Part shown: in pieces, positions 6,432-64,000 of the stretch
Position numbering within the stretch: the first letter of the stretch is position 1
How the letters are laid out: each line of letters opens with the position of its first letter
Assembly: GCA_016703105.1 (NCBI GenBank)
Contig: JADJCS010000007.1
Span: 143,810-207,809 of the forward strand
Reading direction: 5' to 3'
Origin: Flavobacteriales bacterium
Lineage (GTDB): Bacteria > Bacteroidota > Bacteroidia > Flavobacteriales_F > PHOS-HE28
DNA length: 64,000 nt
Notes under the pieces: generated by a model
The model's input: only the letters and a program-made list of their open reading frames with translations
Told to the model about the DNA's origin: nothing
The model's database searches: none
Translations under genes and position numbers: made by a program

Positions 6432-6471
6432 CAGACCATCGGGAATGACCAATACCAGGTTGCCGACACGA

Positions 6472-8052: not shown

Positions 8053-8076
8053 GGGTGTTCTGGTCTAGTTGATCGA

Positions 8077-9279: not shown

Positions 9280-9436
9280 GGCGACCGTGTTAGACGATGC
9301 GAACGTATCGCGACCCCTCACCCCCATCGGTGACGATCCTCACCGAACAGCCATTATCCTGACAAGGATCAGTAAAAGGCCACCGCTCCGCATGGAGTTT
9401 TGTTCCGCCGATGTCAACCATGCGCGGCGAACCACC

Positions 9437-42498: not shown

Positions 42499-43407
42499 AT
42501 GAACATGGCACGCCAGGGACCCGATCGCGTCGCCTGGGGCCTGTTGCTGTTGCTGGCGCTGATCTGGGGCAGCTCCTTCATCCTTATGAAGCGGGGGCTC
42601 TTCCACGAAGGGGTGCCCGTGCTCGGGCCCTTCCAAATGGCGTCCGCCCGGTTGGCGATCGCTTGGGCCGCATTGGCCCCCCTGCTCTTCCGGTACGCGC
42701 CGTTGCTGCGCCAGCACTGGCTCCCGTTACTGGCCACCGGAGTATTGGGGAACGGGATCCCCGCCTTCCTCTTCGCAGCGGCCCAAACGCATATCGACAG
42801 CGCCTTGAGCGGCATGTTGAACAGCCTAACCCCACTGTTCACCATGCTGGTGGGGGCCCTCTTCTTCGGAACTCGAATGCGCGGTTGGCACATTGCCGGG
42901 ATCCTGGTGGGTCTCTGCGGGGCGGTCGGGCTCATCGCCATGAAGAGCGCTGACGGGCTTCCCACTTGGTCGGGTTACGCCGTGCTCCCCGTGCTGGGCA
43001 CCGTATGCTACGGCTGTAGCGCCAACATCGTGAAGCGGCACCTCTACATGTTGCCCTCAGCGGCCACGGCCTGTCTTGCGCTTTCATTCGTGGGTCCGAT
43101 CGGGCTGGCGGGCGCTTTTGGGGATGGGCTTCCGCAGACCCTCGATACGCAGCCGCATGCCTGGACCTCGCTCGGATATGTCGCCCTTCTGGCCGTCATG
43201 AGTTCCGCACTGTCCCTGGTGCTCTGGAACGCACTATTGAAACGCACCTCGGCGGTATGGGCCAGTAGCGTGACCTACCTGATGCCCGTGGTAGCCATCG
43301 GCTGGGGACTGTTGGACGGCGAGGTGCTTAGCCTGGTCCAGATGCTCATGATCGGCGTAGTGCTGGGTGGCGTGTATATGGTGAACCGCGCCGAACGCGT
43401 AGAGTGA
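42499..43407 (+). CDS. EamA/DMT-family transporter
   Basis: 10 predicted TM helices in two EamA repeats. Confidence 0.75.
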   Translation: MNMARQGPDRVAWGLLLLLALIWGSSFILMKRGLFHEGVPVLGPFQMASARLAIAWAALAPLLFRYAPLLRQHWLPLLATGVLGNGIPAFLFAAAQTHIDSALSGMLNSLTPLFTMLVGALFFGTRMRGWHIAGILVGLCGAVGLIAMKSADGLPTWSGYAVLPVLGTVCYGCSANIVKRHLYMLPSAATACLALSFVGPIGLAGAFGDGLPQTLDTQPHAWTSLGYVALLAVMSSALSLVLWNALLKRTSAVWASSVTYLMPVVAIGWGLLDGEVLSLVQMLMIGVVLGGVYMVNRAERVE

Positions 43408-45899: not shown

Positions 45900-47512
45900 A
45901 TGCTTTCGCTGGGCAAAGCGCGGATCCAACTGCTCATCGCGCTGGGCGCCTTGCTCCTTTTCGTGCCCGGCCTCGGAGCCGTCCATCTCTTCGATTGGGA
46001 CGAGATCAACTTCGCCGAGATCGCGCGCGAGATGGTGGTGAGCGGGGACTGGTCGCGCCCCACCATGGGTTTCGAGCCCTTCCATGAGAAGCCACCGCTT
46101 TTCATGTGGATGCAGGCGGCGTGCATGAACGCTTTCGGCATCGGCGAGTTCGCCGCCCGGCTGCCCAACGCCTTGTGTGGTGCGCTGACGTTGGTGGTGC
46201 TGTTCCGCATCGGGTCCCAGGAGCGTGATCCGATCTTCGGATGGCTGTGGGTCATAGCGTACGTAGGTTCCATTCTCCCCACCTCTACTTCCACAGTGGT
46301 ATCATCGATCCGTGGTTCAACCTCTTCATCTTCCTCGGGCTCTACACCTTCATCCGCTCGGTGCGGGAGCGATCATTGCGACAGTCGATCCTCAGCGGCG
46401 CTCTGGTCGGGCTGGCGGTGATGACGAAAGGCCCTGCGGCCATCATCATCGTCGGGCTTGCGGTATTCACCTACTGGGCGCTGCAACGCTTCAAGGTGTT
46501 CTTCTCCTGGGCCCATATCGGTGCCATGCTGCTCTCGATGGTGTTCATCATCGCGCTCTGGTTCGGTATTGATCTCCTGCGACACGGCCCGGACTTCACC
46601 GTGGCGTTCTTCGAACGTCAGGTCGCCTTGTTCACCGAGGAGGATGCCGGACACGGAGGCTTCTTTGGATATCACTTCGTGGTTCTATTGATCGGTTGTT
46701 TCCCTGCTTCGCTGTTCGCGTTGCAGGAGTTGTTGAAGCCGACGAAGGAAGGGGACGAGCGCCGTGCTTTCCGCACCTGGATGATGATCCTCTTCTGGGT
46801 GGTGCTGATCCTGTTCAGCGTGGTAAGCACCAAGATCGTCCACTACAGCAGCCTGTGTTATTTTCCGCTCACCTATCTGGCCGCCCTTCAAGTGGAGCGG
46901 ATCTGGAAGAAGCAGGAGGGCTTCGGTTGGTCGCGCTTCGCCATGGGCGTGATCGGCAACATCATCGCGCTCGCGGTGGTCGTCCTCCCCTTCGCGGCGA
47001 TGCGTATCGAACGGCTCAAGCCGCTCTTCTCCGCCGATCGGTTCGCGCAAGGGAACCTCGCGGCGAATGTGCGTTGGACCGGTCTGGAGGCCGTCGCCGG
47101 CGCGGTGCTGTTCGCAGCGCTGCTCGCGGCGCATGTGTTGCACAGCAAGGGCAGGTTCCGCCAGAGTTTGTTAGTGAGCTTCGGCGGTGTGGTCCTCTTC
47201 ATCTGGTGTGCGCTGTACTTCTTCGTGAACAACATCGAAGGCTACTCACAACGGGCGGCCGTCGAGTTCTTCGAAGCGCGGCAGGACGAACCGTGCTACC
47301 TCCTTACCAAGAACTACAAAAGCTACGTGCCGGAGTTCTATGGGCGGATGCGTGAACCACAACCCAACGAGGAGGTCCTGCTGGGCGGGCCGATCGATAG
47401 ACCGGTCTACCTCTCCTGCAAGATCACCTCTATGGCGGAAGTGGAAGCGTTGGGAACGTTCCACGAACTCTACCGCAAGAACGGCTTCGTCTTTTTCAAG
47501 CGGGAACCTTGA
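45900..47512 (+). CDS. GT39/ArnT-like (PMT_2) membrane glycosyltransferase, one frameshift near 46277-46286
   Basis: N-terminal frame 45900..~46285 and frame 46241..47512 together give a ~530-aa 12-TM ArnT-like protein. The break is at a CCCC run. Confidence 0.7.
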
Positions 47513-47532: not shown

Positions 47533-48213
47533 ATGAAGGCACACATCCACACTCCGACCAACGATCCCCGACAAAGCATCGACTTCTACACGCGCCTTGG
47601 TTTCACACGGTTATCGGAGGATCCGATGTTGTTCACCGATGGAAGCACGGTGATCGAGGTGGATCCAGACCGGCGCGCGCGTGCGGGTGTGCGTTGCTAC
47701 CACACCGATCCCTCGGCGATCATCGCGAAGCTGGGCGTGAAGGCCCATCCCATCAAAGGCGGCCATGTGGTGAGCGATCCGAGCGGGATATGGGTGTACA
47801 TCATGGAAGGAAAGGCGCCGAAGGTGGATATGGCGGGCGTGGCCACAAGCCTGCTCGGCGATTTCGCCGGGCTCAGTGTTGAAAGCACGGACGTCGCACG
47901 ATCGCTCACCTTCTGGAAGGCGTTCGGTCTGGAGGTCACCATGGGTAGTGCGGAACAAGGTTGGGTGTCCCTGGGTGGTGAAGGCTGGCCGGGAGTGAGC
48001 ATCATGGCCCCGCTGAACTGCCCGCATCTGTTCTTCAACCCCTCGCTCACCTACTTCAACGGCAAGGAGGGCAATCCAAAGGTGATCGCGAACGTGCGGA
48101 AGGCAGGGATCCCGATCACCGAGGAGATCACGCATTTCAACAAGGAGGGCATCGCGGACAACATCATCGTGCGCGATCCAGGCGGCCTCGGGTTCTTTCT
48201 CTTCAACGACTGA
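47533..48213 (+). CDS. VOC (glyoxalase/bleomycin-resistance fold) family protein
   Basis: Two beta-alpha-beta-beta-beta modules; weak motif-level call. Confidence 0.5.
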   Translation: MKAHIHTPTNDPRQSIDFYTRLGFTRLSEDPMLFTDGSTVIEVDPDRRARAGVRCYHTDPSAIIAKLGVKAHPIKGGHVVSDPSGIWVYIMEGKAPKVDMAGVATSLLGDFAGLSVESTDVARSLTFWKAFGLEVTMGSAEQGWVSLGGEGWPGVSIMAPLNCPHLFFNPSLTYFNGKEGNPKVIANVRKAGIPITEEITHFNKEGIADNIIVRDPGGLGFFLFND

Positions 48214-48216
48214 CCT

Positions 48217-49382
48217 ATGGAACCTGACCTGTCCCACATTCTTACCCATCTCGGCGAGGACCGCGAGCGCGGCTACGACGCGGTGGTGCCACCCATCGTG
48301 CAGAGCGGGAACTTCACGTATCCCACCGTGGCGGCGATGCGGGCCACGGTGCAGCAGGAGTTCGACAAGCCCCTTTTACACACGCGGCTTCAATCCGACC
48401 GTGGCGGTGCTGCGGAAGAAGATCGCCGCGCTGGAACGCGCCGAAGATGCGATGGTGTTCAGTAGCGGGAGCGCGGCCATAGCGGCGGCGGTGATCAGCT
48501 TCGTGAAGGCGGGCGATCACATCGTCTGTGTGCGCAAGCCCTACAGTTGGACGAAGAAGCTCCTGGCGGAACTCCTCTCCCGTTTCGGTGTGGATCACAC
48601 CTTCGTAGATGGCACCGATCCGGAGAACTACCGGCGCGCGATCCAGCCGAACACCAAGTTCTTCATCCTCGAAAGCCCGAACTCGCTCACCTTCGAACTA
48701 CAGGACCTGGCAGCGGTGAGCGCGATCGCGAAAGAGCACCGGATCGTTACACTTTGCGACAACAGCTTCAACAGCCCGCTGTTCCAGCGACCCATCGCGC
48801 ACGGCATCGACATGGTGGCGCACAGCGCGACCAAGTACTTGAACGGCCACAGCGACGTGGTGGCCGGCGTGCTCGCCGGAAGCCATGAACACATGCGCCA
48901 AGTCATGGCGAAGGAATTCATGACGCTGGGCGCGGCACCCTCGCCGCACGACGCCTGGTTGCTGATCCGTGGCCTGCGCACGCTGGAGCTACGCATGCAC
49001 CGCAGCGCCGATTCCGCGGAGAAGGTGGCGCGCTTTCTGGAAGGCCATCCGAAGGTGGCCCGGCGTGCACTGGCCGGGGCTGGAGAGCCATCCGCAACAT
49101 GTGCTCGCAAAGCGACAAATGGATCGCGTGGCCGGACTGATGAGCATTGAACTCGACGCACCCGATGAAGCCGCTGTGGAACGCTTCTGCGATGCGCTCA
49201 AGACCTTCCTGATCGCGGTAAGCTGGGGCGGGTACGAAAGCTTGCAGTGGCCCGTGTGCGCACTGAAGGGACCCAGCGGTTACTATACTGACCTACCCTT
49301 CACCATGGTGCGGCTCTACATCGGCTTGGAGGATCCCGATCTTCTCATCCGGGACCTGGAGCAGGCCTTGGCGCGGATCTAA
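48217..49382 (+). pseudogene. PLP-dependent Cys/Met-metabolism enzyme (cystathionine gamma-synthase/beta-lyase family) split over three frames
   Basis: Conserved blocks 'FNPTVAVLRKKIAALE', 'SATKYLNGHSDVVAG' (PLP-Lys), 'YPGLESHPQHVLAKRQM' lie in successive frames. Breaks at C-runs ~48370-48373 and ~49040-49042. Confidence 0.75.
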
Positions 49383-49580
49383 AGGCGCACTCGCGCAGAA
49401 GTCGCCGCACAGATCGAGAACCGACGCGATGTGGAGATGGCTATTGTGATCGAGAGGAACGATGCTGTGTAAGCCAACAGGGCACTTGTCATGGACACTT
49501 CAAGGTAACTGGACCGTTCGGTCGGGTAGCTGAACTCCATGGGAGAAATACCGGCAACGTTCAGATTCCTGCCTCCAAGG

Positions 49581-52019
49581 TCAGAACGTCGCTCGCAAGG
49601 CGACTATGAAGTTCCTACCCGGCGAAGTCATGCCGGACGAGTAGGTTCGATAGCGCGCATCGAGCACATTCTCTACGCCCACCGAAAGCAACACCGCGGG
49701 TGTCACACGGATGCTCCCTTTCACATCCAGCACTTGCCAAGGCGGGCAGAACGGGTCACCCGCAGCATCCAGTGCGTAAATGGGTTTGTCCTTCTCGGTG
49801 GGAGCCAGTTCCTCAGTAGTGAAGCCATCACTGAAAGAGAAGAGCGCCCGCAGATCAACGCGCCCATGTGCCCAGCGTAAGCCGATCCGCCCGAAGGATG
49901 GGGGTGAATGACGCAGCGGTACTACGCTCACTCCATCCTCCGCATCCTCCGAACCTGACTGGCCCGTGTACCGGACCTCTGCGGAGAAACCCGCGAACAA
50001 TATCGCTTCCATGGAAAAGGTCCCGCCCCATACGCGGGCTTGCGCGACGTTCTGGATCGCATCCACGCGGCTCAGGGAGCCTTCATAGAAAATGCTGTCC
50101 GCACCGTTCAGATCATAAGGCCTGCGCACCATGACATCGTCCACGAGGATGTAGAAAAGTGAACCGCTCAGCTTGACACGGTCCAGGATCGTCTTCTCCA
50201 CGCTCAACTCCGCACTATAGGCATACTCCGGTCCGAGATCCGGGTTGGGCACGATCACTGTGCCGGGCTCATTGGAGAACACCTTACCCACGTCATCTAT
50301 GTTCGGGGAACGGAAGCCCGTGCTCAGGTCGATCGCGAGTTTCCATGCGGTCCCCGGTCGCCACGCAGCGCCCATGTTGCCGGTGAGCGCGCCATTGTTC
50401 AGCGAAGTATGCGTGGTCGGATAAGGGAACAGCGTCGTATCGAAAGTCGCCTCAAGACCCGAGCGGCTGTAACGCGCTCCTGCGGAAAGCGTGAGGCGTT
50501 GCGTCAAGTCAGCCATCGCGCCGACATACACCGAACCGGTCCACCACGTCGATCCATCGGGATAACGCGCATTGATGTTCTGATAGGCATCGTCCACCGT
50601 CTCATGCTGTGCCGCGTGGGAACCGACCAGGTTGTGGATGGCCTCCGCGCCGTAGAGCAGTTGAACACGCTTGCCGAGGAACTTCTGCAGATCGAGGTTC
50701 AGCCAAAGACCATCGACTTGTTCCTTCTGAAGAGTGATCTCTGTTTGTCTGAACCCGCGTTGTGTCCGGCTTTCGTCATACCGCTGGGAAGCGATCACGA
50801 GATGCGCCTTTGTCCATGGGCCACGTTTCGCGATGTGGCTTACCTCACCGCTGATCATCCGCCAGGCCTGTGGCCCGTAGTTCCACACCGCCCACCGCGC
50901 TGATCCATCGCCCCGTGCTGTGATCATCGCGTCATAGCGCGGATGATCGCTGGTTGTGGTGTAATAGCCGTTGAGCCCGACCTCCAGCCCGTGGATCGGA
51001 CGGTAGGCGAGCTTCGCCATGTAGGCGTAGTTCTCGAAGGCCGTTCCCATTTGGAGCTTGGGATCCACGTTCACCACCTGGCTATCCACCCCGTTGAACG
51101 TTCTGACGTACCACGGGCGCAAGTAGTCATCCAAGCCATCGGAGCCCATGCGCAGATCGCCGTACCCGGTAAGCGAAGCACTACCGACGAAGGCGAACTT
51201 GCGCGAACCGATGCCGAGGTCCACATGCCCCGCTAGCTCGTTCGCTGCGCTTGCCGATCGCAGATAGCTCGTACCGCGCACCAGCAAGCCACTGTCCGCA
51301 CTGAAACCTGGCCGCAGCAGCCGGAAGTCCATAACCCCACCGATGGCGTCACTACCATAGGTCATGGCCCCTGGCCCGTATACCACTTCGGCATGCTCCA
51401 CCGCGTGTACGTCCACGTTGATCACGTTCTGCAAATTGCCAGCGCGGTAGATGGCGTTGTTCATCCGCACGCCGTCCACGACGATGAGCACGCGGTTGGC
51501 CGCGAAGCCGCGCAGCATGGGACTCCCCCCGGCCTGCTGTGTCTTTTGCACGAACACCTCCCCGCTTTGCTGCAGCAGGTCCGCGCTAGTACCCGGGTTG
51601 TGGAACGCAACATCCGCCGCGCGCATCACGGTGATCCGATCCGGTACCCGTGTACCATCCTGCTCCCAGCGATTGGCGCTCACCACCATTTCGGGCATCT
51701 GGAAAGGAACGACCACCAGGGCCACCCGATAGCCACGACGGACCACGTCGTCCCAAGCGATCCGCACTACAGGATGGCCTGGAACGATGAACGACAAAGT
51801 GTCCGATCCCAGGTCCGCGACGACCCTCACTTGCCCGTTCACGTTGGTCGTACCGAGAGGCCGGCTGAACTTGGCGAGGACCTGAACGCCCTCCAATGGG
51901 CGGTCCGCACCCTCCTCCACCACGGTGATGGTCTGCGCCTGTAGCAGGAGCGTCCCCGCCAGGGTGCAAAGGGAACATATGACGCTGCGAAGCACCACGG
52001 CCCAACAAATGAAACGCAC
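49581..52019 (-). CDS. TonB-dependent receptor (intact)
   Basis: Signal peptide, plug domain, 22-strand barrel pattern, C-terminal '...ALRATF'. 812 aa; GTG start. Confidence 0.9.
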   Translation of the reverse strand: MRFICWAVVLRSVICSLCTLAGTLLLQAQTITVVEEGADRPLEGVQVLAKFSRPLGTTNVNGQVRVVADLGSDTLSFIVPGHPVVRIAWDDVVRRGYRVALVVVPFQMPEMVVSANRWEQDGTRVPDRITVMRAADVAFHNPGTSADLLQQSGEVFVQKTQQAGGSPMLRGFAANRVLIVVDGVRMNNAIYRAGNLQNVINVDVHAVEHAEVVYGPGAMTYGSDAIGGVMDFRLLRPGFSADSGLLVRGTSYLRSASAANELAGHVDLGIGSRKFAFVGSASLTGYGDLRMGSDGLDDYLRPWYVRTFNGVDSQVVNVDPKLQMGTAFENYAYMAKLAYRPIHGLEVGLNGYYTTTSDHPRYDAMITARGDGSARWAVWNYGPQAWRMISGEVSHIAKRGPWTKAHLVIASQRYDESRTQRGFRQTEITLQKEQVDGLWLNLDLQKFLGKRVQLLYGAEAIHNLVGSHAAQHETVDDAYQNINARYPDGSTWWTGSVYVGAMADLTQRLTLSAGARYSRSGLEATFDTTLFPYPTTHTSLNNGALTGNMGAAWRPGTAWKLAIDLSTGFRSPNIDDVGKVFSNEPGTVIVPNPDLGPEYAYSAELSVEKTILDRVKLSGSLFYILVDDVMVRRPYDLNGADSIFYEGSLSRVDAIQNVAQARVWGGTFSMEAILFAGFSAEVRYTGQSGSEDAEDGVSVVPLRHSPPSFGRIGLRWAHGRVDLRALFSFSDGFTTEELAPTEKDKPIYALDAAGDPFCPPWQVLDVKGSIRVTPAVLLSVGVENVLDARYRTYSSGMTSPGRNFIVALRATF

Positions 52020-52105
52020 TGGCCCGGATGTAACGAGTACACCCGGGCCAGCTTGTTGCGCGCCGCGAGAACGTCAGAACGAAGCGCGCAATATGTGTGC
52101 GGTGA

Positions 52106-52639
52106 TCACATGGTCTTCCGCATTCGCTTCGGCCCGTACCAGAGCCAGAAGCCAGTGATCGTGAAGGTCACCAATGCCGTACCCATGACGCTCGTGTAGA
52201 CGAGTTTGAACCATTCGCCTTTGATGCCGAAGAGATGGTCCACGATGGAACCGTCATGCACATTCTCGATGAAGTCCGATCGGCGCCGTTCAATATGCAA
52301 AAGCTCTCCGGTTGTGGCATCCAACTGGATCCCCCAGAAGTGATCGAGGAAGACGAACTTGACCATTCCCTTCTCTGGCCGCACATCGATGCGCTCAAGA
52401 TCGAGGGCGAGCGTGGAAGAGATCGAATCATGCAATATGCGGCAAGCGTTCCGGTGCAGGCTGGTGATCGGCAACCAGTTGGCCATATCTGTGGAGGCGC
52501 CTGTGTAGGACTTCGGTAGGATAATGCCGTTGCTATGTTTCTTCCAACCCAACAGAAGACCGGTGCCAGCGACCACGAAAAAGAAAGCGAAGAGGCACGC
52601 GCCGGTGATGCGGTGGACCTTGCGAAAGGTCCGCAACAC
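52106..52639 (-). CDS. PepSY-associated TM helix protein
   Basis: 'RKVHRITGACLFAFFFVVAGTGLLLGW' PepSY_TM N-terminal motif. Start approximate (non-ATG). Confidence 0.5.
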   Translation of the reverse strand: MLRTFRKVHRITGACLFAFFFVVAGTGLLLGWKKHSNGIILPKSYTGASTDMANWLPITSLHRNACRILHDSISSTLALDLERIDVRPEKGMVKFVFLDHFWGIQLDATTGELLHIERRRSDFIENVHDGSIVDHLFGIKGEWFKLVYTSVMGTALVTFTITGFWLWYGPKRMRKTM

Positions 52640-52731
52640 ACGCGCCTGGCGCCTCCTGGGGGTCTGAACATCAGGGTGAGAGGGTCGGTGGGGGCCGCAG
52701 AGCCCCACCTCGATCCGCCTGGGTCTCGTGA

Positions 52732-55184
52732 TCAGAACGAAGCGCGCAATGCCAGTAGGAAGTTGCGTCCCGGCGCCGTGATACCGGATGAGTATGGCCG
52801 GTAGCGCTGGTCGGTGATGTTTTCCACGCCGGCCGTCACTTGCAAGGCCTTCACGATCTGATAGCTCCCCTTGAAGTTGAGGGTGTACCAACTAGGCGCA
52901 TAGGGATCACCGTTGTCATCCAAGGCATAGATCGGCGTCTTGGCCTGCTCGCTGGGTGCCAGGTCATCAAAGGTGAATCCCGCGCTGAAGTCCGCGTACA
53001 GCCTGAGCCGGATCTTCTTGCGTTCCCAACTAAGCCCTGCGCTGCCGAACGCGGGCGGGCAGTGCCGGAGGGGAACGTCGATGATGTTATCGTCATCCTG
53101 CTCCACGCCATCCTGCCAGTTGTAACGTGCATCGAGCCCGATACCAAGCCCAAGTTTCGCGTCCACGGCGATCAAGAAACCCAGCACGGTAGCCTGCGCG
53201 GCGTTCTGGATCGCATCCACTCGGCTCAACTCACCATCGTACATGATGCTGTCCTGCCCATTGAGTTCGTAGGGACGCCGGACCATTGCGTTGTCCAGCA
53301 GGATGTAGTACCCGTTCGCACGCAACCGCACGCGATCCCAAGCACCTTCTCGATGCCGATCTCGGCGGTATAGGCATACTCCGGTCCGAGTTCCGGGTTC
53401 GGTACGATCACCGCGCCCGGTTCACTGTCGAACACCTTGCCGATGTCATCGATGTTGGGCGAACGGAAACCCGTGCTCAGATCCAGCGAGAATTTCCAAG
53501 CCGTTCCAGGGCGATAGGCCAGGCCAAGGTTCCCGGTGAGCGCATTGTTGTTCAAGCTCGTCGCGGTAACGGGATAGGGGAACAACGAGGTGTCGAACGC
53601 GCACTTCAGCGCCGACCAATTGAAACGCGCACCGCCGGATAGGGTGAACCGCTCACTGGGATCGCGCATGGCGCCGACGTAGACCGAGCCCGTATTCCAA
53701 GAGGAACCATCGGGATAGCGGGAATTGATGACCTCGAACTCGCCGTTCTCCTGATCCACGCGTTGCCGGGTGGACCCTACGTCGTTGGTGACGAACTCGG
53801 CTCCATAGAGCAATTGCGTGCGAGCCCCAGGTCCTTCTGCAGGTCGAGATTGCCCCAGATGCCGGATACCTGTTCCGCCTGCGTGCGGAGCCGTGAGTTC
53901 CCGAAATTCCGATCGTTCCGGCTCTCCTCATAGTCCTGGTAAGCGACGGTGAGGCGTGCCGTGCTCCATGGACCACGCTTGGCCTGATGCTGAATACGCA
54001 AGCTGCCCATCAGCCAGTCCTGCGGTCCATAATACCACTCAGCGGAGCGCGGAGCGTCGTTGCGCAGTTCGATGAGCCTGTCGTAGCGCGGCACATCACT
54101 GGTCGTGCTGTAGTAGAAGTTCGCCCCGATCTCCAGCGATGCGACTGGGCGATAGGCGAGCTTGCCCATGAAGTTCATGTTGTCATAGGCGCTTCCCACT
54201 TGGAGTTCGGGATCGCTATTGATCACCATGCTATCCGCACCATTGATCACCTCGGAATACCAGGGGCGCAGATAATCGTCGGGGCCTTGTGTGCCCATGC
54301 GTAGATCCCCGAACCGAGTGAAGGAGGCGCTACCCACGAAGGCGAGTTTGCGTCCACCAAGGCCGAGGTCGAGATGCCCTCCGTACTCGCTCGCAGCGGA
54401 ACCATATCGTGCTGCGGCTCCTCCTCGGAACAACAGCGTGCTGTCCGCACTGAACTTGGGGCTCAAAAGGTGAAAGTCCATGACTCCACCGATGGCATCG
54501 CTTCCGTAGGTCATGGCCCCCGGGCCATGGATCACTTCGGCCCGTTCCAGTGCGTACGGATCGGCGCTGATCACGTTCTGCAGGTTCCCTGCCCGGTAGA
54601 TGGCGTTGTTCATACGCACCCCGTCGACCACGATCAGCACACGGTTGGCCGCGAAGCCTCGAAGCATAGGACTGCCTCCACCCAATTGGCTTTTCTGCAT
54701 GAAAACCTCTCCGGTCTGTTGGAGCATATCGGCCGCGGTGCCGGGGTTGTTGAACACGATATCGCGCGGCTTGATCACAGTGATCTGATCGGGCACACGG
54801 TCCGCTTCTTGTTCCCAACGGTTGGCGCTGATGACCACTTCGTTCAATGGGAACGCCGCAGCGGTAAGCACGATGCGGTTCTCGCTCTTGGCCAAGTCGC
54901 CAAAGGCCACGGTGTTGGGCCCATAACCGAGCAGGTGGAGATGCAGACTATCCGAGCCCGCGAGGGATGCGATGGAGGCGCGACCGCGTACATCCGTCAG
55001 CACAGGGGCATTCGCATCGGCTCCTGTAATGGAGACCCCTCCAGGGGTCGGTCCGTATCCTGATCGACCACGGTTATGGTCTTGCGCATTGAGACGCCAC
55101 CGCAGCGAACGTCAATAGGACGATGATGGTCCTTGATGTGATCATGTGAAAGGTGAAAGAATGGACCAAGGAAACCCACATCAT
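52732..55184 (-). pseudogene. TonB-dependent receptor paralogue with >=4 frameshifts
   Basis: The signal-peptide frame, the 82-aa fragment, and the 408-aa, 195-aa and 199-aa ORFs are collinear with the intact receptor at 49581..52019 but lie in different frames. Confidence 0.8.
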
Positions 55185-55535
55185 GACCTCCCCTTAGGAG
55201 GACACGACATCGCCGCCCGACCTTGGTGAAAAGGCGGCTATGCAAGCAGATCGATGATCAAGCCTTGGGCGGGGGCACCTGCACATTGCGGACACCGCTC
55301 AACAGCGTGGCCCGTTCACAGGGATACCGAACGGACATCGGGGTTCGAACCGGAGAGAAGCTGAAGGGGGCTTCGTCGGGGACCGCTTTGCAGAACGCCA
55401 GGATGTGGCCGGTTTGCTGGCGCCCCATGCCCCGTGTACCCATCGCCAGGTCAGTGGGAAAGACGGCGCATGGCGCGCCAAGATAACAGGTCGACGTCGG
55501 TCCTTTTGGCGCTCGGAGGACAACGGCCGCTCTGT

Positions 55536-57731
55536 TCAGGGATCGGTCGGGTTTGCGGCCCGGATATCAAGCACCGCACGGGCAGCAGCGTGCCCGTGAT
55601 CGAGAAGCCGCTCCAATTCAGCGGCACGCTCTATCGGTACGATCAAGTCGTTCACTTGGAGGGCTGACCGCAATAGGACCTGCCGTTCGTCGATCCGATC
55701 AAGGTTGCACCTGTACTGCGTACTTCCGCAGGTATCCACGCCGACAATGGCGGATCGAAGGTCCACATCCACGGGCCGGTCGAAACCCACCTGGATCGAC
55801 AGTTCATCACGCTGCGCGAAATCCCAATGGAACGGAAGATCACGACCCGCCGCTCGAAACCCCTCGGGCAGGGCATGCTCCAGAAGACCCGAGAGATCGA
55901 GTTGCCAGGTATCCTCACCGGTGGCAGAGAGAGCCTGCGATAGATCGAGCTCCATCTCAATGGCCTGCCGGAAGGGCGGGTCGGTTTGCAGTGGGGCCAT
56001 CCGCTGGTCGATCAACCGGGCATGGGGTGAATGGTCCGGCCGATGACCGTATGCGGGGAGCACTGTGCTATCCACTTCATTGAACAAGTAACTGGCGCGC
56101 CCAAGTGTGCTGAACTGACCCATGAGGAGAACGCGCACGTGAACATGTACGGTGCGTTGCGCGAGGTCCACCTCCATATCGAAATGGACCTCACGCACAT
56201 TCTCATATGGGGGTGCAATGGGCAGGTCGGTGAAAACCGGATGCACCGGCCCATCGCTCACAAGCAGCCCCAAGTTGTTCAACAACGCGGATGTCCCTTG
56301 CCAATAGAAAGGGAACTCGTTCGCCATAAGACCCGACCGGGAACACTTGGGGTGCATCCACAGAAGGCCATCACCATCGCGCACCGCGAGGAGGAACTCG
56401 TTGCCCCAAAGCGGGGATATGTAGCGATCGTCCATTCGACCCACGCGCGCATCCAAGACGTAGGCCGAGGTGTAATCCACGAAATAGTGGTCGATGATCT
56501 TGGCATAGAGATCATACCGGCTGATGGCCCGTAAGCGGCTCTCGTTCACCTGGTCCCCCATCCGCGGTCGGCCCGTCCAGTGATCATTGTCGTACCAGGC
56601 ATTGTCCGGTTCGAAAGTGAACCTTGTGGCGATCCGTTCGTGGATCCGTTCGATGCGCCGAGCGACCGGTTCTTGTCCCTGGCCAAGGGTTGTGGATCGT
56701 ATGAAGTCCTTGAGCAGCTCGTTCTGATGATCGGGTACGTTCTTGCGCGCCACCTGCTTCCACCAGAGCGCCTTGTCCTCTCGCTCACGCAGCACATACA
56801 TCCAATACGGCTGCTGAACAGGGATACCACTGAGGTGGTCACGTCGCCAGTAACGTGGGTCATCCGGTTCGAGGCGTACCACGATGTGGGGTAAAAGATC
56901 GGCCGGGCGTGCGTTCACTTCATCCATACAAGCGGGCAGATCCTCCATGTGCCAAGTGCATCGTATTTCATCGCCTTCCTCCTGGCGCTCGGTGGCAGGC
57001 CAACCCATGAGCACAAGGCCATGCTTGCGATGGTACACGATCTCGGTGCGCTGAGCCCTGATGGGCAGTGTCCCATGGAAGAAGACCCGCCAACTGGTAA
57101 GCCGGGACCAATTGTCCACCCAATAGCGTGCGCGCCATCCGTAGCTCCGCGGTGCGTTCAGATCGTACGGCACCATATATTTCCATCGGAACTCGACCAC
57201 GTCGCCCGTGCGGATCCCCGCTACATCGAGCAAGTAGCTCCATGCTTCTTCGTTCGTGATCGGGGTCCGCACCTTGGCGCGCTGCACGCTTCCCGTAACG
57301 TGAAGTTCCTCCCATGATCCGTCTGGGCGCACGACCCGGGCCGCGAAAAGATCCAACCGGACGTTGAACCAAAGGGGATGCGCCTGCCCGTTCGGATCCG
57401 CTGGACCTGAAAGTTGACGATCGGAAAGGGGATCCAAACTCTCTGGGACAGTGACATGCCCGAAGGCCCGGATGCTCGCCTGATCGGTGAAGCGTATTAC
57501 CCTACGCCGCTCGAAGAACACACTGAGGAACTCCGGTTTGATATTGCGCAGGCGGATGGACAAGGCCTCGTCCAAGATCTCCGGACCAGCCGCTATGCCG
57601 ACCGACCAGGACGGATCCCAGGCGGGATCCACACTCCAGTCATACTGCGCGCGGAGAATGGATAGATCTTGGGCCTCGATCGCGCTCATCAGCACGATCG
57701 CGAGGATGGCCGATGTGCAACGCGGGAACAC
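55536..57731 (-). CDS. large secreted hypothetical protein
   Basis: 731-aa ORF, signal peptide MFPRCTSAILAIVLMSAIEAQ (GTG start). No family assigned. Confidence 0.5.
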   Translation of the reverse strand: MFPRCTSAILAIVLMSAIEAQDLSILRAQYDWSVDPAWDPSWSVGIAAGPEILDEALSIRLRNIKPEFLSVFFERRRVIRFTDQASIRAFGHVTVPESLDPLSDRQLSGPADPNGQAHPLWFNVRLDLFAARVVRPDGSWEELHVTGSVQRAKVRTPITNEEAWSYLLDVAGIRTGDVVEFRWKYMVPYDLNAPRSYGWRARYWVDNWSRLTSWRVFFHGTLPIRAQRTEIVYHRKHGLVLMGWPATERQEEGDEIRCTWHMEDLPACMDEVNARPADLLPHIVVRLEPDDPRYWRRDHLSGIPVQQPYWMYVLREREDKALWWKQVARKNVPDHQNELLKDFIRSTTLGQGQEPVARRIERIHERIATRFTFEPDNAWYDNDHWTGRPRMGDQVNESRLRAISRYDLYAKIIDHYFVDYTSAYVLDARVGRMDDRYISPLWGNEFLLAVRDGDGLLWMHPKCSRSGLMANEFPFYWQGTSALLNNLGLLVSDGPVHPVFTDLPIAPPYENVREVHFDMEVDLAQRTVHVHVRVLLMGQFSTLGRASYLFNEVDSTVLPAYGHRPDHSPHARLIDQRMAPLQTDPPFRQAIEMELDLSQALSATGEDTWQLDLSGLLEHALPEGFRAAGRDLPFHWDFAQRDELSIQVGFDRPVDVDLRSAIVGVDTCGSTQYRCNLDRIDERQVLLRSALQVNDLIVPIERAAELERLLDHGHAAARAVLDIRAANPTDP

Positions 57732-57734
57732 GAC

Positions 57735-59039
57735 CTACTTCTTTCTCATAAAGATACGGATGGGTACTCCAGTATACGGGAAGTGGTGGCGGATCTTGTT
57801 CTCTAAGAACCTCAGGTAAGGGCCCTTCACGTATTGCGGCAGGTTGCAGTAAAAAGCGAACGAGGGTACGACCGTAGGCAATTGGTTCACGAACTTGATA
57901 CGGATCACCTTGCCCTTGTTCATGGGCGGCGGCAGCCGCTCGATCTCCGGGAGCATGATGTCGTTCAACTTCCGCGTGGGGATCTTCCGCCTGCGGGCCT
58001 CCCACACTTCCATGGCCTGCTCCATCACCTTGTGGATACGCTGCTTTTCCAGCACCGATGTGAACACGATGGGCACATCGTTGAAGGGAGCGAGCCGCGC
58101 GCGGATCTGGGCCTCGAACTCCTTGGCGCTGTTGGTCTCTTTCTGCACCAAGTCCCATTTGTTCACCACCACCACAAGGCCTTTGCCGTTCTTCTCGATC
58201 ATGGAGAAGATGTGGAGGTCCTGTTGATGGACCCCTTCGGTGGCATCAATGAGCAGAAGGCACACATCGCTATCCTCGATGGCGCGGATGGAACGGATCA
58301 CACTGTAGAACTCGATATCCTCATCCACGCGCTGGCGTTTGCGTATGCCTGCGGTGTCCAGAAGCACCACATCGAAGCCGAACACCGTGTAGCGCGTGTT
58401 GATCGGATCGCGCGTGGTGCCGGCGATCGGCGTCACGATATTCTGCACGCGGCCCAGTAACGCGTTAACGAGAGAGGATTTCCCTACGTTCGGGCGACCC
58501 ACGATCGCGAGCTTCGGCACATCGGGCAGGGCCTCCTCACTGGGTTTGGTGAAGCTGGCTACAAGTGCATCCAGGAATTCGCCGGTACCCGCTCCGCTCT
58601 GTGCGCTGATGCAATAGACCTCGCCCATGCCGAGCGAATAGAGTTCAGCGGCGGCGTACTGCTTATCGTTCGTGTCCACCTTGTTGCCCAGCAGAAGCAC
58701 CGGTTTACGCGCTTTGCGCAACATGCGGACGATGGCTTCGTCCAATGCGGTGAGGCCGGTCATTACATCCACCATGAAAAGGATGGAATCGGATTCATCG
58801 ATGGCCAGTTCCACCTGACGACGGATCTCTTCCTCGAACACGTCATCACCACCGGGAACGTAGCCTCCCGTATCGATCACACTAAAGACGGTGCCGTTCC
58901 ATTCGGCCTTGCCGTAGTGCCTGTCACGCGTGGTGCCGGCCGTGGGGTCCACGATGGCCTCCTGCCGTTCGGTGAGCCGGTTGAAGAGCGTACTCTTTCC
59001 GACGTTCGGTCTTCCGACGATGGCGACGATGTTGCTCAT
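57735..59039 (-). CDS. der: ribosome-biogenesis GTPase Der (EngA), tandem GTPase domains
   Basis: Two G-domains ('GRPNVGKST', 'GRPNVGKSS') and a C-terminal KH-like domain. ATG at 59039 overlaps the era stop. Confidence 0.9.
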   Translation of the reverse strand: MSNIVAIVGRPNVGKSTLFNRLTERQEAIVDPTAGTTRDRHYGKAEWNGTVFSVIDTGGYVPGGDDVFEEEIRRQVELAIDESDSILFMVDVMTGLTALDEAIVRMLRKARKPVLLLGNKVDTNDKQYAAAELYSLGMGEVYCISAQSGAGTGEFLDALVASFTKPSEEALPDVPKLAIVGRPNVGKSSLVNALLGRVQNIVTPIAGTTRDPINTRYTVFGFDVVLLDTAGIRKRQRVDEDIEFYSVIRSIRAIEDSDVCLLLIDATEGVHQQDLHIFSMIEKNGKGLVVVVNKWDLVQKETNSAKEFEAQIRARLAPFNDVPIVFTSVLEKQRIHKVMEQAMEVWEARRRKIPTRKLNDIMLPEIERLPPPMNKGKVIRIKFVNQLPTVVPSFAFYCNLPQYVKGPYLRFLENKIRHHFPYTGVPIRIFMRKK

Positions 59040-59914
59040 CAGTATCCGTAGCGTTTCAATTTCGCGGCATCCTGGCGCCAATCAGGATCGACTTTCACAC
59101 GAAGATCGAGGAAGACCTGCACCCCGAGGAAGCGTTCGATCGCCTTGCGGGCCTCCGTACCCAACTTGCGCAAGGCGATGCCGCCGCGGCCGATCACTAT
59201 CCCCTTCTGGCTTTCGCGCATCACGATCACATCGGCCTGGATGTGGGTGATCTTCTCCTTCTCCTCGAAGCTGTTCACCACCACCTCGGTGCTATAGGGG
59301 ATCTCTTTCTGGTAATAGGCCAGGATCTTCTCCCGGATCATCTCGCTCACGAAGAAGCGCATGTTCCGATCGCTCAGTTCATCCTTCGGGAAATAGGCCG
59401 GGTGCTCCGGTAGTTGCTCGATGAGGTGTTGGCGCAACTCATCGACCCGGAACCCGTGCAGCGCGGAGATGGGCACGACCTTCGCGGCGGGCAAAGCCTT
59501 TTGCCAAAGCTCGAGGGACTCGAGCACGGCAGCCTCGTCGCCCCGGTCCATTTTGTTCACCAAGAGCAACAACGGGCCATTGAACCGCTGCGCACGCTGC
59601 AGGACATTCTCCGAGCGCTCAGGGCGTTGACCGAGTTCTACGAGCACCAGGAGGATGTCGGCGTCCTTGAGCGCACTGTCCACTGCATCCATCATGCGTT
59701 CATGCATGGGATACTGCGGGTCAAGGATCCCCGGGGTGTCACTCAGGACCAATTGGTGGTCCTCCCCATTGAGAATACCCAGGATGCGGTGACGTGTGGT
59801 CTGCGCCTTGGGATTGGTGATCACCAATTGTTCACCGAGCAGGGCGTTGAGCAGGGTGCTCTTGCCCACGTTCGGCTCACCAATGATGTTCACGTATCCG
59901 GCTTTGTGCGCCAT
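59039..59914 (-). CDS. era: GTPase Era
   Basis: G1 'GEPNVGKST', G3 'DTPG', G4 'NKMD', C-terminal KH domain. Confidence 0.9.
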   Translation of the reverse strand: MAHKAGYVNIIGEPNVGKSTLLNALLGEQLVITNPKAQTTRHRILGILNGEDHQLVLSDTPGILDPQYPMHERMMDAVDSALKDADILLVLVELGQRPERSENVLQRAQRFNGPLLLLVNKMDRGDEAAVLESLELWQKALPAAKVVPISALHGFRVDELRQHLIEQLPEHPAYFPKDELSDRNMRFFVSEMIREKILAYYQKEIPYSTEVVVNSFEEKEKITHIQADVIVMRESQKGIVIGRGGIALRKLGTEARKAIERFLGVQVFLDLRVKVDPDWRQDAAKLKRYGY

Positions 59915-59996
59915 GGGTCGATACCGCGAAGTTCGCGGTACTTGGGTCGGGGTGGTCGGGAACGCGAAGGCCCGGCTTGCACCGGGCCTTCCTTTG

Positions 59997-60069
59997 TAGC
60001 GGGGGTAGGACTCGAACCTACGGCCTTCGGGTTATGAGCCCGACGAGCTACCATCTGCTCCACCCCGCA
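59997..60069 (-). tRNA. initiator tRNA-Met (anticodon CAT)
   Basis: Cloverleaf read from the reverse complement: 7-bp acceptor stem with a 1:72 mismatch, three G-C pairs in the anticodon stem, loop CUCAUAA, TPsiC arm GGTTCGAGTCC. No CCA encoded. Confidence 0.75.
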
Positions 60070-60118
60070 CTAGGGGGGCAAATGTAGCAATGATCGGGCG
60101 CCTCTCTGGGAATAAGTT

Positions 60119-62050
60119 TCAGTTCGCCGTTTCGGCCAGGGCTTCGAGCTTGGCGGCGGCATCCTCCCATTCGGCCATGGTACTGGCGATGCGTTGCGCC
60201 AGCTCCCCGAGGCGGGCATATCCCTTGTCAACCTCGGAAGCGGCTACACCGCTCGTCATAACACGGGCCTGAAGAGCTTTCTCCTCCTGCTCCAAGGTGG
60301 CCAACTGTTTCTCCAGACGCTCCACCTGGTTCTGCAAGCGGCGCCGCTCCTTGTCGCGTTCCTTCTTCTCGTGGTAATCGTTCTTCGACCCGCTTTCCTG
60401 GCGGGCTGCCGCTTGTCGGGCACTACTGGCCCCCATGTCGGCCGTTTGCAGTGCCTTGCGCTTCTCGATCAGCTCCAGGATGTCCATGTGCTGGTCCCGG
60501 ATGCGCAGGTCATCCAATTCGAGAAGGCGATTGGTGAGGCCGGTGAGGAAATCGCGATCATGGCTCACGAGCAGGAAGGTGCCGTCGTAGTTCTTCAGGG
60601 CTTCCTTCAGCACATCCTTGCTCTGAATGTCCAAGTGGTGGGTGGGCTCATCGAGCAGCAGGAAGTTGAGCGGTCGCAACAACATGCAGCAGAGGGCCAG
60701 ACGCGCGCGCTCACCGCCGCTCAGCACTTTCACCTTCTTGTCGACATCCTCTCCGCTGAACATGAACGCACCCAGCATAGCACGCACGCGTACTCGGTTG
60801 TCCTCGCTGGCAGCATCTTCCGCCGTTTCCAACACCGTGCGCTGCGGGGTCATGCGCTCGGGCATGTCCTGGGCGTAATATCCAACGATCACGTTGTGAC
60901 CCAGACGGATCTCACCTTCATAGGGCTCCTCGCCCACGATCATGCGCACCAAGGTGCTTTTGCCGGTGCCATTGGCCCCGACCAACGCGAGGTGCTCCCC
61001 TTTGGCGATGGTCAGTTCAGCGTTCTGGAAGATCTTCTTCGGGCCGTAGGACTTGCTGACGTTCTTCACCTCCGCCACCAACTTCCCGCTGTTCGGAGCG
61101 GGAGGGAATTTCACCAACATCTTCCGTAGGTCCTCATCCTCCACCTCGATGCGGTCAAGCTTCTCCAGCTTGGTGATAAGGCTCTGCGCGAAAGCCGCCT
61201 TGCTCGCCTTCGCCCGGAATTTGTTGATGAGATCGGTGGTTTCCTTGATGTAGCGCTGTTGGTCCTTGGCCGCAGCGGATTGCTGCTCGCGCTCCACCTT
61301 GCGCAATTCCACGTATTGGGTCCAAGGCACCTTGCGATCGATGAGTTCGCCACCGGTGACCTCCAAGGTGCGTTTGGTAAGGCGGTCTAGAAAGGTCTTG
61401 TCGTGTGAGATCAGGACCAACGCGGCAGGATAGGTCCGCAGCAGGTCTTCCAACCACTGGATGGCGGGCAGATCGAGGTGGTTGGTGGGCTCGTCGAGGA
61501 GGAGCAGGTCGGGCTGCATGAGCAGGATACGTGCGAGTTCCGCCCGCATCCGCCAGCCACCGCTCAACTCTGACAGCGGGCGATGCATATCCTGCCCCAC
61601 GAAGCCGATGCCTTTCAGCATGCGCTCGATCTGCATGTCATGGTCCGCTGCGCCCAAGGCATTGAGCCGGTCATGCGCGTGGGCCAGCAAGGTGGCCAGC
61701 TCCATGGCCTCCTCGTCGGTGATGGTGCCCTCCAATTCCTTCTCGATGCGGGCCAGGGAAGCGTTCAAGGCCTGCGCCTCTTCGAACGCCTTCTCCGCGA
61801 CCTGCCAGGGTGTGAGTTTCAGGTCATGGTCCATCTGCTGTGGCAGATAGCCCATGGTGAGCTCCTTCGGCTTGCCCACCGTGCCCTTGTCGAACTGTTG
61901 CTGGCCCGCGAGGATCTTGAGCAGGGTGCTCTTACCCGCACCGTTCCGCCCCACCAAACCAATGCGGTCATCACTTCCGATGAAGAACGAAACCTCATCG
62001 AACATGGGCCGTTGGCCGAAGTGCAAGGTCAGTCTCGATACGTCGATCAT
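60119..62050 (-). CDS. ABC-F family ATPase (tandem ABC domains, no TMD)
   Basis: Two Walker A motifs ('GRNGAGKST', 'GANGTGKST'), two signature 'LSGG' motifs, charged inter-domain linker and C-terminal coiled coil. Confidence 0.9.
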
Positions 62051-62162
62051 CGCGGTGCTCTAGCCCCCGAGCTCGGCCGGTGAAGTATGCCTGCTGGAGA
62101 AAGGGGCGCAAAAGTAGCGAAGCCCCGGGATCCGGGGCTTCGTAAGGCTCATAGGGGAAAGA

Positions 62163-63029
62163 TCAGAAGTTCCAGAGATCGTGCTCGAACTCAAAGAGGG
62201 ATTGCTTGATCTCCTCCCCTTCAAGCAGCGCATCAAGACCGGTCCGGTACACCCCGATCTTCCGATCGTACACGTTGCTCCACTTTGTAATGGTGCTCGA
62301 GAACTGGCGCTTCCAGAAGATATCCTCGAAACTGCGCCGTTCCGCATCGTTCTCCCGGTTGAAGACCTCCCAGTTGGCGAAGACATACCTGCACTCTGGG
62401 AAGTACAGCCAGAATAGGGTTTGGAATCCCTTGGATTCACCATCCTGTCCCTTCTTTTCGATCATCGGCGCAATGCCAATGATCCGGATATCGATCTTGC
62501 TGCGTTGCTTATCGAAGATCCAATCCTCCTTGATCCTGTACCGTTTGACATCCGAGGATTCCAGAGATATCTCTTGAATCACCTGCTGCATATCACCAGG
62601 GTTGTCCGGATCCTCGGTGTACGAAGTGTCCAAACGCATGAACATGGTCTTCAGATCGGATGGAAGTAAGGGTGTCTTGAATTCGTCCTCTTCGACCAAG
62701 TCCCCGGCATAGTACGCTGTGATACTTCCGTCGGTGAGCAGTCCCTGACGGATCACATCGAACAGACTCTTTCGATCGCTGATAGGGGTGATCGGATAAT
62801 ACAGCGGATGGTTGATCTTCTCGCGCATATCGATCTCCCGCCAAACACGTCGAGCGTACATGACATCCGCTTCACGAATGTGGGTATAAGGGACTACCCG
62901 TTTTGTCTTCGTATGCTCCTTTATGTACGCACCGTCCAAGACCGTTTGGGCTTGCACTGGAGCCATGACCATCACAAAGATCACGATCGGACCAAGTATC
63001 CGAATTGCGCTGGGCTGGTGCTTCTTCAT
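62163..63029 (-). CDS. gldN: gliding-motility protein GldN
   Basis: Signal peptide; ~290 aa; similarity to GldN; immediately downstream of gldM. Confidence 0.8.
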   Translation of the reverse strand: MKKHQPSAIRILGPIVIFVMVMAPVQAQTVLDGAYIKEHTKTKRVVPYTHIREADVMYARRVWREIDMREKINHPLYYPITPISDRKSLFDVIRQGLLTDGSITAYYAGDLVEEDEFKTPLLPSDLKTMFMRLDTSYTEDPDNPGDMQQVIQEISLESSDVKRYRIKEDWIFDKQRSKIDIRIIGIAPMIEKKGQDGESKGFQTLFWLYFPECRYVFANWEVFNRENDAERRSFEDIFWKRQFSSTITKWSNVYDRKIGVYRTGLDALLEGEEIKQSLFEFEHDLWNF

Positions 63030-63044
63030 GGCTTCTAGGATTGA

Positions 63045-64000
63045 TCAGGTGACCTTCAAAGACAGCGATCCGATGCTGGTGATGGTACCATCCGGCTTCT
63101 TCACCTTGATGTTATCGATGTACACCTTCGCACCGGCCTTTACTTTCTTGAGCATGTCCTTTTGTTCCTGAGAGACCTTATTGCCCTTTGCGGACTTCTC
63201 GGCGTAAGTCCCCCCCATCGTCACACCAATGTTGAATTCGATCACCTCGAACTTCAGATCGAACTCAAAGCCTTCCATCTTCGCGATCACGCCGAGCGCG
63301 GCAGTTAGTTCAGATGCTTTGATCGTCGCATCACTCACTCCCTTCCCTCCGAACTGCGGTGTCGGGTTCGGTACGGACTTCACCCGGAATTTAACACCCG
63401 GCATGCTCTTGCGTTGGCCCCCAGGCATCTCCACGCTTACGCTCACAGTAGCTTCAGTGCCTTTGCCCGGCTTCACGATATAGCCCTGGGCCCCTTTGGT
63501 GATACTACCGTTGTCAATGCTGGGCTGGATCTTGTCCGCCGAGAATCCGGGAACGCTCACATCCACCGGGTTGTCGATGCCGCGGTAGAACACGTTCATC
63601 TTGGTAGGGCTGACCACAAGGTTGGGCTGCGCCACCTCGTAGTTCGCATAGAACGGATAACGCCGCTCCTCCTGTCCCGCCTGCTTGAACTTGATGATAC
63701 CCTTCCATTCCTTGGCACCCACGCCCTGGCCGGGGAGGCGCAGTTTTCCTTTGCCATCGGCTCCGATGGGAACAACTTCCTTATCGCCGATCACCTCCAT
63801 TTTCACCGTGTCGATGGTGCCGTTCTTCGACAACTCGACCACCGGATGGTTGAGCGGGTCGTATCCAGCCAGGTACACATCGGCCCGGAACGAATCGCCG
63901 ACCGTGATGTAATTGCTCACCGGCAGAACGACCGGTGCCAGCTCGGAGAATTTCATTGCAGCTCCTTCCACATCGCCCATGAGGAAACCCACGCATTCGT
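63045..64000 (-). CDS. gldM: gliding-motility protein GldM (3' portion; gene continues past window end)
   Basis: C-terminal ~315 aa of a GldM-like protein; ORF open to the window edge. Confidence 0.75.
   Translation of the reverse strand, partial: ECVGFLMGDVEGAAMKFSELAPVVLPVSNYITVGDSFRADVYLAGYDPLNHPVVELSKNGTIDTVKMEVIGDKEVVPIGADGKGKLRLPGQGVGAKEWKGIIKFKQAGQEERRYPFYANYEVAQPNLVVSPTKMNVFYRGIDNPVDVSVPGFSADKIQPSIDNGSITKGAQGYIVKPGKGTEATVSVSVEMPGGQRKSMPGVKFRVKSVPNPTPQFGGKGVSDATIKASELTAALGVIAKMEGFEFDLKFEVIEFNIGVTMGGTYAEKSAKGNKVSQEQKDMLKKVKAGAKVYIDNIKVKKPDGTITSIGSLSLKVT

Follow-up and report, generated by a model that had tools for sequence, protein, structure and literature searches.

In a stretch of 64,000 nucleotides from a Flavobacteriales bacterium (contig JADJCS010000007.1 of assembly GCA_016703105.1, positions 143,810 to 207,809; the whole stretch is hereafter called the window), two genes for TonB-dependent receptors lie in tandem with a PepSY_TM gene between them. 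The downstream receptor gene, rec1, is intact, and its upstream paralogue, rec2, is split by frameshifts. Is rec2 a receptor gene in decay, or is it whole in the cell and broken only in the assembled sequence? An earlier note on this DNA had left the choice between duplication followed by degeneration and an error-dense region. The first option was weakened by the comparisons described here, since rec2 is intact in conspecific assemblies, is the ancestral copy and bears no detectable mark of relaxed selection. The second gained support, since two unrelated genes are also frameshifted within about 9 kb and sister metagenome-assembled genomes (MAGs) have frameshifts of their own. It is most probable, on the evidence of the assembled sequences compared, that the rec2 frame breaks are local consensus errors of a low-coverage, mixed-strain Nanopore MAG and not cellular mutations. 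The tandem receptor pair and the PepSY_TM gene are real, and they are ordinary members of known families.

The interrupted receptor gene and its conspecific counterparts

The two receptor genes are composed as follows, in window coordinates; L004 and L005 are conspecific assemblies that carry two different rec2 allele types.

49581..52019, minus strand: rec1, intact TonB-dependent receptor, an uninterrupted open reading frame (ORF) of 812 residues from a GTG start
52732..53337, minus strand: rec2 segment 5, C-terminal barrel, ending in ...LLALRASF and a stop codon
53338..53339, minus strand: rec2 break 4, one base absent; window CTTG-GGATC, L005 type CTTGTGGAC, L004 type ATCGCGGATC
53340..53822, minus strand: rec2 segment 4, barrel, 161 codons
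53823..53824, minus strand: rec2 break 3, net -1; window GGGGCT-CGCAC, L005 type GGGTGCTCGCAC; within a 9-column allele-switch interval
53825..55039, minus strand: rec2 segment 3, N-terminal extension, TonB-box-like EVVISA, plug and first half of the barrel
55040..55041, minus strand: rec2 break 2, G4 in the window, G5 in 7/7 conspecifics
55042..55083, minus strand: rec2 segment 2, KTITVVDQDTDRPL
55083..55095, minus strand: rec2 break 1, -2 and +1 in 13 bases, net -1; a patch mixing L004-type and L005-type bases
55086..55184, minus strand: rec2 segment 1, signal peptide MITSRTIIVLLTFAAVASQ from ATG 55145 (read by eye); alternative in-frame ATG at 55184

That the 812-residue receptor is intact, as the earlier note had stated, was borne out by its uninterrupted ORF and by matches to both domains expected of such a protein, Plug (PF07715, 62.4 bits, cut-off 23.9) and TonB_dep_Rec_b-barrel (PF00593, 96.4 bits, cut-off 27). 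The rec1 product is identical to database protein P0057, begins with a signal peptide (...CTLAGTLLLQAQ, read by eye), carries the TonB-box-like motif EMVVSA and ends in F, and its conspecific orthologues are annotated at 805 residues. In a multiple alignment with seven conspecific assemblies, no indel was found in rec1.

When rec1 was compared by tblastn with positions 52600..55400, its paralogue was recovered in four pieces lying in differing frames, with 48-65% amino acid identity. On the minus strand, rec2 occupies 52732..55145 when counted from the signal-peptide ATG. The start at 55184 given earlier corresponds to a second ATG of this ORF, in frame and further upstream. Five collinear segments are present (55145-55086, 55083-55042, 55039-53825, 53822-53340 and 53337-52732), and their frames, expressed as the upper coordinate modulo 3, run 2, 0, 1, 2, 0, which corresponds to four net -1 shifts. 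A spread over at least five frames had been claimed; the five segments, with their four shifts, in fact use three reading frames. The addition of one base at each break (four in total) gives an ORF of 805 residues with zero internal stops, so that the paralogue is indeed recognisable throughout. The repaired protein ends in F and shares 96% identity over 100% of its length with the intact 805-residue protein P0001 of a conspecific MAG; the rec2 orthologue P0121 exceeds the cut-offs of both Plug (67.4 bits) and TonB_dep_Rec_b-barrel (130.2 bits). The longest homopolymer in rec2 has 5 bases, and the break sites lie in runs of G3-G5 or outside repeats.

The conspecific set consisted of seven loci, L001 and L003-L008, plus the Logan/ENA protein P0127. 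L003-L008 were gathered by a look-up with the Der protein of the window and L001 (JADJFW) through the rec2 protein P0001, and the multiple alignment set window positions 48082-64000 against these seven loci. Over window positions 42645-64000, L001 shows 98% DNA identity and the same order of receptor, PepSY_TM and receptor. With 96-99% DNA identity, rec2 is intact at 804-818 residues in L001, L003, L004, L005, L007 and L008 and in P0127; the rec2 of L006 is split too, at positions other than those of the window. These intact copies may stand, by proxy, for reads that would restore a full second receptor. The 408-residue ORF of the source MAG that includes segment 3 is on record as MBK6754010.1 (P0124), as rec1 is on record as P0057, and this fragment is recorded from one contig only. 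A scan of JGI metagenomes for the G4/G5 site at 55040 gave no match, which has no bearing either way.

In Singleton et al. 2021 (PMC8012365), Supplementary Data 3 groups JADJFW, JADJUU, JADJHV, JADJJC and JADJAP in a single species cluster, 277_1, which is placed by GTDB in Flavobacteriales, family and genus PHOS-HE28. In three rows of that table for cluster 277_1, coverage is 7.5-9.5x for Illumina and 9-15x for Nanopore, and the polymorphic-site rate is 2.7-5%. According to the methods given in that paper, these MAGs come from activated sludge of Danish wastewater plants and were assembled with CANU on Nanopore reads, followed by polishing with Racon, two rounds of medaka and a single round of Racon that used Illumina reads; its authors themselves term the MAGs chimeric population bins and acknowledge platform errors (PMC8012365). 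The accession MBK6754010.1 falls between those of JADJAP and JADJFW and, judged from this run of protein accessions, the MAG of the window appears to belong to the same project as its cluster 277_1 relatives.

Distribution of indels and allele switches

The region around the receptors contains further genes, several of which are interrupted as well.

45900..47512, plus strand: PMT_2 glycosyltransferase, broken at 46276 (G5 in L001, G4 in the window)
48217..49382, plus strand: Cys/Met-metabolism pyridoxal phosphate (PLP) enzyme, convergent with rec1; three ORFs resulting from +1 at 48377 (A3 to A4) and at 49064
52106..52678 (end approximate), minus strand: PepSY_TM gene, 190 codons by homology
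52679..52731, minus strand: spacer between rec2 and PepSY_TM, with a G+C-rich hairpin (GGTGGGG...CCCCCACC)
55258..55472, minus strand: remnant of s179, a small membrane-protein gene; 323 bases absent at 55454, stop after six codons
55536..57731, minus strand: 731-residue protein with a signal-like N-terminus

Between 48.1 and 55.5 kb, 11 events are specific to the window, 8 of which are gene-disrupting, and one more was found at 46276 by comparison with L001. Five of the 11 are in rec2 (-2, +1, -1, -1 and -1), and the others comprise one gap of 323 bases in s179, three shorter ones (7, 3 and 6 bases) in the spacer and at the PepSY_TM start, and two +1 events in the Cys/Met PLP gene. Deletion of two bases from the latter restores a protein of 387 residues, as in conspecifics, and in other species the enzyme shows 79-87% conservation; the breaks in the Cys/Met PLP and PMT_2 genes are probably consensus errors as well. 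For an additional indel at 47502, the error may lie in either assembly, since L001 alone covers this region and has errors of its own. Elsewhere the window is clean: no private indel was found at 55469-64000 against the seven conspecific loci, the comparison of 3428-24821 with JADJUU gave 147 mismatches and one intergenic gap over 21.4 kb, and the genes at 30-41 kb appear full length. Indels are thus restricted to about 46-55.5 kb, with a single intergenic one in the roughly 30 kb compared elsewhere. A uniform sequencing error across the window was rejected on account of the 21.4 kb that contain a single gap relative to JADJUU.

Sister assemblies show similar lesions at positions of their own. 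The gene der encodes an essential GTPase; in L001, der (5786-7087) is split into 183 and 244 residues, the gene of the 731-residue protein (7133-9285) is split, and the start of rec1 is affected near 13220. In L003, rec1 and gldM are split, and in L006, gldL and rec2. The private indels of L001, L003 and L006 are of ±1-2 bases, each at its own positions. No private frame-disrupting lesion was seen in the compared loci of L004 and L008, and L005 has coding-sequence indels that are in-frame only, despite its truly divergent rec2 allele. Between L004 and L005 there are about 411 substitutions and 5 indels (approximately 1:80) with zero coding frameshifts, versus 96 substitutions and 11 indel events among the private changes of the window.

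No other gene of the stretch varies as much within the species as rec2. The alleles at L004:14221-16638 and L005:14217-16631 differ in 234 columns over 2.4 kb (about 10%), versus 9 columns for rec1 in the same pair, and the L005-private rec2 changes comprise 91 synonymous and 28 nonsynonymous ones, a pattern that suggests import of the divergent rec2 allele by recombination. In the window, rec2 is mosaic and switches 38 times between L004-type and L005-type sequence. The switch intervals cover 26% of the gene and contain all five of its indel events (5/5), for which the probability by chance is about 0.0013. At break 4 the position is that of an exact switch from L005 type to L004 type. At both 53339 and 53823 the window follows the L005 type minus one base, and it turns L004-type at the join (53339) or within about 6 bases of it (53823). 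The insertion at 49064 in the Cys/Met gene borders a short patch encoding 'VHWPGL', as found in other species; because this patch agrees with other species, it represents a genuine third haplotype, bordered by an indel. At 55040, 46276 and 48377, on the other hand, the change is one of homopolymer length. Two artefact classes can be proposed from these observations, namely homopolymer length errors and indels at haplotype merges. Reads of different haplotypes would have been merged, making the consensus jump between allele types, and a base may have been dropped or added at the joins; in short homopolymers, a Nanopore length call may have been left uncorrected.

The substitutions in rec2 bear on whether the gene has been inactive for any length of time. 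Those private to the window are 13 synonymous and 5 nonsynonymous, and they fall 4/2/12 on the three codon positions, compared with the equal numbers expected under neutrality (chi-square about 9.3, 2 degrees of freedom). The corresponding synonymous and nonsynonymous counts are 13:7 in rec1 and 26:10 in the gene of the 731-residue protein. No relaxed selection was detected on the rec2 lineage of the window, whose pattern is like that of its intact neighbours. Owing to this third-position bias, no more than a few of the substitutions can be younger than an inactivation, and five indel events do not fit so short a period.

Ancestry of the locus and competing explanations

For other species, a scan with one genome per species yielded 80 loci (L010-L089) with 43-76% identity; it covered species other than that of the window, and its top match, L019, belongs to a different species and gave no hit to the window in megablast. 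The earlier note had proposed examining the orthologous locus in relatives and aligning the two receptors at the DNA level. In all 80 of these loci (80/80) there is a single receptor, nearer to rec2 than to rec1, and two receptors are found in the conspecifics and in the sister species L002, an Illumina/megahit contig in which both are intact, at 826 and 820 residues. Since a single rec2-like receptor is present in 80 other species, rec2 is the ancestral copy and rec1 a lineage-restricted addition. The rec1 orthologues seen amount to three database proteins with 84-89% identity, one of which (P0062) is the rec1 of L002, and rec1 is limited to the species of the window and this sister species. 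The protein shares 57.6% amino acid identity with its own rec2 and 51-58% with the rec2 orthologues of other species, versus 64-88% between rec2 and those same orthologues. The DNA-level alignment of rec1 and rec2 gives about 68% identity. A recent tandem duplication was rejected, as the copies are not mutual closest relatives and differ to this extent in protein (57.6%) and DNA (about 68%); by these comparisons, rec1 and rec2 are old paralogues. In related species, the ancestral order is the 731-residue protein, s179, one receptor and a convergent Cys/Met enzyme gene. The PepSY_TM gene adjoins the rec2 orthologue in 2/80 other species and is absent from L002. So far as the genomes compared indicate, rec1, with or without PepSY_TM, is an insertion confined to the species of the window and one sister species.

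The presence of a PepSY-TM gene between the receptors, noted earlier, was confirmed by a match of the window protein to PF03929 with 36.5 bits (cut-off 28.8; 36.2 bits for the L004 protein), covering model positions 2-160 of 295. The ATG used by conspecific PepSY_TM genes is lost in the window through a 6-base difference at about 52672, and alternative in-frame starts exist at GTG 52639, with AGGAGG 12 nt upstream, and at GTG 52708. A start at GTG 52639 would retain the entire Pfam-matched region. The spacer is 7 and 3 bases short of most conspecifics in the window, and L005 too has true-looking indels of +1 and +3 bases in the spacer or the PepSY_TM N-terminus. On the other side of rec2, s179 belongs to an unannotated family of about 175-205 residues whose members carry a transmembrane helix at the N-terminus, the conserved core ...EFxxxGxMYDVV...CxxDxxET and, at the C-terminus, PPP[KE]; no Pfam or NCBIfam family match was obtained for it. 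It precedes rec2 in conspecifics (13569-14108 in L004) and lies directly upstream of the receptor clade in about 45/80 loci of Bacteroidota and Ignavibacteria, cultured isolates included (for example L011, L013, L027, L031, L043, L049, L057, L068, L070, L073 and L079). The 323-base gap of the window has a length that is not a multiple of three and ends without a clean repeat, and an in-frame deletion of 3 bases at 55469 is common to the window and L005. The 731-residue protein, too, was without a match in Pfam or NCBIfam; in close relatives it is conserved, with 38-51% identity, at a position preceding s179 and rec2. The 731-residue protein, s179, rec2, PepSY_TM and rec1 likely constitute a functional iron- or heme-type uptake cluster.

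An EamA-family gene (42499-43407, plus strand) is intact in the window, with 302 residues. L001 is without 102 bases that are present at window positions 43165-43266, corresponding to 34 codons and one predicted membrane helix.

Several points weigh against consensus error as the origin of the rec2 breaks. The breaks were judged from assembled sequence alone, and since at least 30 kb of the window are essentially indel-free, a local cause is required, for which strain mixing and low coverage are the likely candidates. Homopolymers hold only three single-base events, neither the deletion of 323 bases nor the gaps of 7, 6 and 3 bases resemble classical Nanopore errors, and the rec2 mosaic could stem from real recombination. 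Moreover, s179, rec2 and the PepSY_TM start form one functional module, with rec1 as a possible back-up without indel, and a module-wide disruption that spares rec1 would also fit the real decay of a redundant module. This decay would be a recent pseudogenisation in which the s179-rec2 module, made dispensable by the later-acquired rec1, had suffered the 323-base deletion, the four frameshifts and the loss of the PepSY_TM start codon. In its favour, the lesions lie side by side in elements that belong together, with s179 found ahead of rec2 in about 45/80 other loci, and rec1 is indel-free. Multi-base deletions are unusual as basecalling errors, and the clean flanks at 55.5-64 kb and 3.4-24.8 kb speak for a sound assembly outside the affected stretch. 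The main arguments for real loss are the gap of 323 bases and the fact that the lesions adjoin one another. We nevertheless regard it as improbable. The module is intact in seven conspecific sequences, and the rec2 of L006 is broken at other sites; the private substitutions, at 4/2/12 and 13:5, retain the pattern of a constrained gene, yet five indel events accompany them, far above the ratio of about 1:80 between L004 and L005. Repair of the frame leaves no stop codon and no further lesion, the rec2 indels are located at allele-switch points, two unrelated conserved genes 3-9 kb off are also frameshifted, like lesions hit essential genes in sister MAGs, and L001 shows a comparable loss, of 102 bases, in the EamA gene. 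If the decay were true, the replacement of an outer-membrane receptor by its paralogue would have been caught in progress within a species, as a modest example. In a wider version, the receptor breaks in the window, L006, L003 and L001 may be recurrent loss-of-function variants, arising for instance under phage pressure.

An intermediate explanation, rather unlikely and still deserving of more weight than outright decay, is that the s179 deletion, the short spacer and the lost PepSY_TM ATG are true variants and the single-base frameshifts are consensus errors, in which case rec2 would be intact and possibly regulated differently in the strain of the window. The true-looking +1 and +3 variation of the L005 spacer and PepSY_TM N-terminus, the in-frame deletion at 55469 common to the window and L005, and the existence of real private alleles in the window, such as 'VHWPGL' in the Cys/Met gene, are in line with this explanation. 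The 323-base gap, neither a multiple of three nor bounded by a clean end repeat, is not, and the 102-base gap of L001 implies that such gaps may be assembly artefacts in this data set; the s179 gap and the small gaps at the PepSY_TM start are possibly consensus errors too. Phase variation by repeat-tract slippage, or programmed frameshifting by which translation passes the shifts, can be dismissed almost entirely. One break (55040) does lie within a G run, but no run in rec2 exceeds 5 bases, those at the breaks being G3-G5, and four separate shifts, 3/4 of them outside repeats, would have to be reversed or bypassed. Both were rejected because there is no long repeat tract at the break sites. 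With consensus error as the preferred origin of the breaks, this locus illustrates that a strain-variable stretch in a Nanopore population-bin MAG can mimic a multi-hit pseudogene even in a contig that is otherwise clean. Pseudogene and gene-loss calls from such MAGs need conspecific assemblies or reads for comparison.

Comparison with known systems

The TonB-dependent heme receptors of Neisseria (hmbR, hpuAB) are phase-variable via poly-G tracts. The interruption of rec2 at 55040 resembles them in that a one-base change in a G run interrupts a receptor gene; it differs in that the run has 4-5 bases and not 8 or more, and in that there are four breaks, three of which are outside repeats.

As regards substrate, both receptors align end to end with the heme receptor models TIGR01785/TIGR01786 (HemR, HmuR), which are their top-scoring subfamilies; the TIGR01785 scores of 201.4 bits for a rec2 orthologue and 167.3 bits for rec1, however, do not reach the cut-off of 316.85. 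Plug, barrel domain (22-strand type) and an aromatic residue at the C-terminus are common to them and heme receptors, as is a motif resembling the TonB box, E[VM]V[IV]SA; in addition, the FRSP and NPEL/NPDL boxes of rec1 and rec2 resemble FRAP/NPNL. In heme receptors, a conserved histidine lies between the FRAP and NPNL boxes; in both receptors of the window, the FRSP and NPEL/NPDL boxes are separated by 19 residues, none of which is a histidine. Both also differ from the heme subfamily by an extra N-terminal extension that is CarboxypepD_reg-like, below the Pfam cut-off. From these similarities, the substrate is likely an iron complex or heme.

PepSY_TM proteins often adjoin siderophore receptors, as exemplified by the ferric-siderophore reductase FoxB, and reductases of the FoxB type have four transmembrane helices and paired histidines that bind two hemes. 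The PepSY_TM protein of the window is like these proteins in its Pfam match above the cut-off and in adjoining TonB-dependent receptors on the same strand, and unlike them in having 190 residues only, matching model positions 2-160 of 295.

Finally, the lesions share with known long-read indel errors that single-base indels, some of them in short homopolymers, split conserved ORFs, vary between assemblies and hit an essential gene in a sister MAG. In contrast to such errors, those of the window are confined to about 9 kb and are found mostly at haplotype switches rather than in homopolymers. This pattern is better accounted for by mixed-strain polishing than by raw basecalling.

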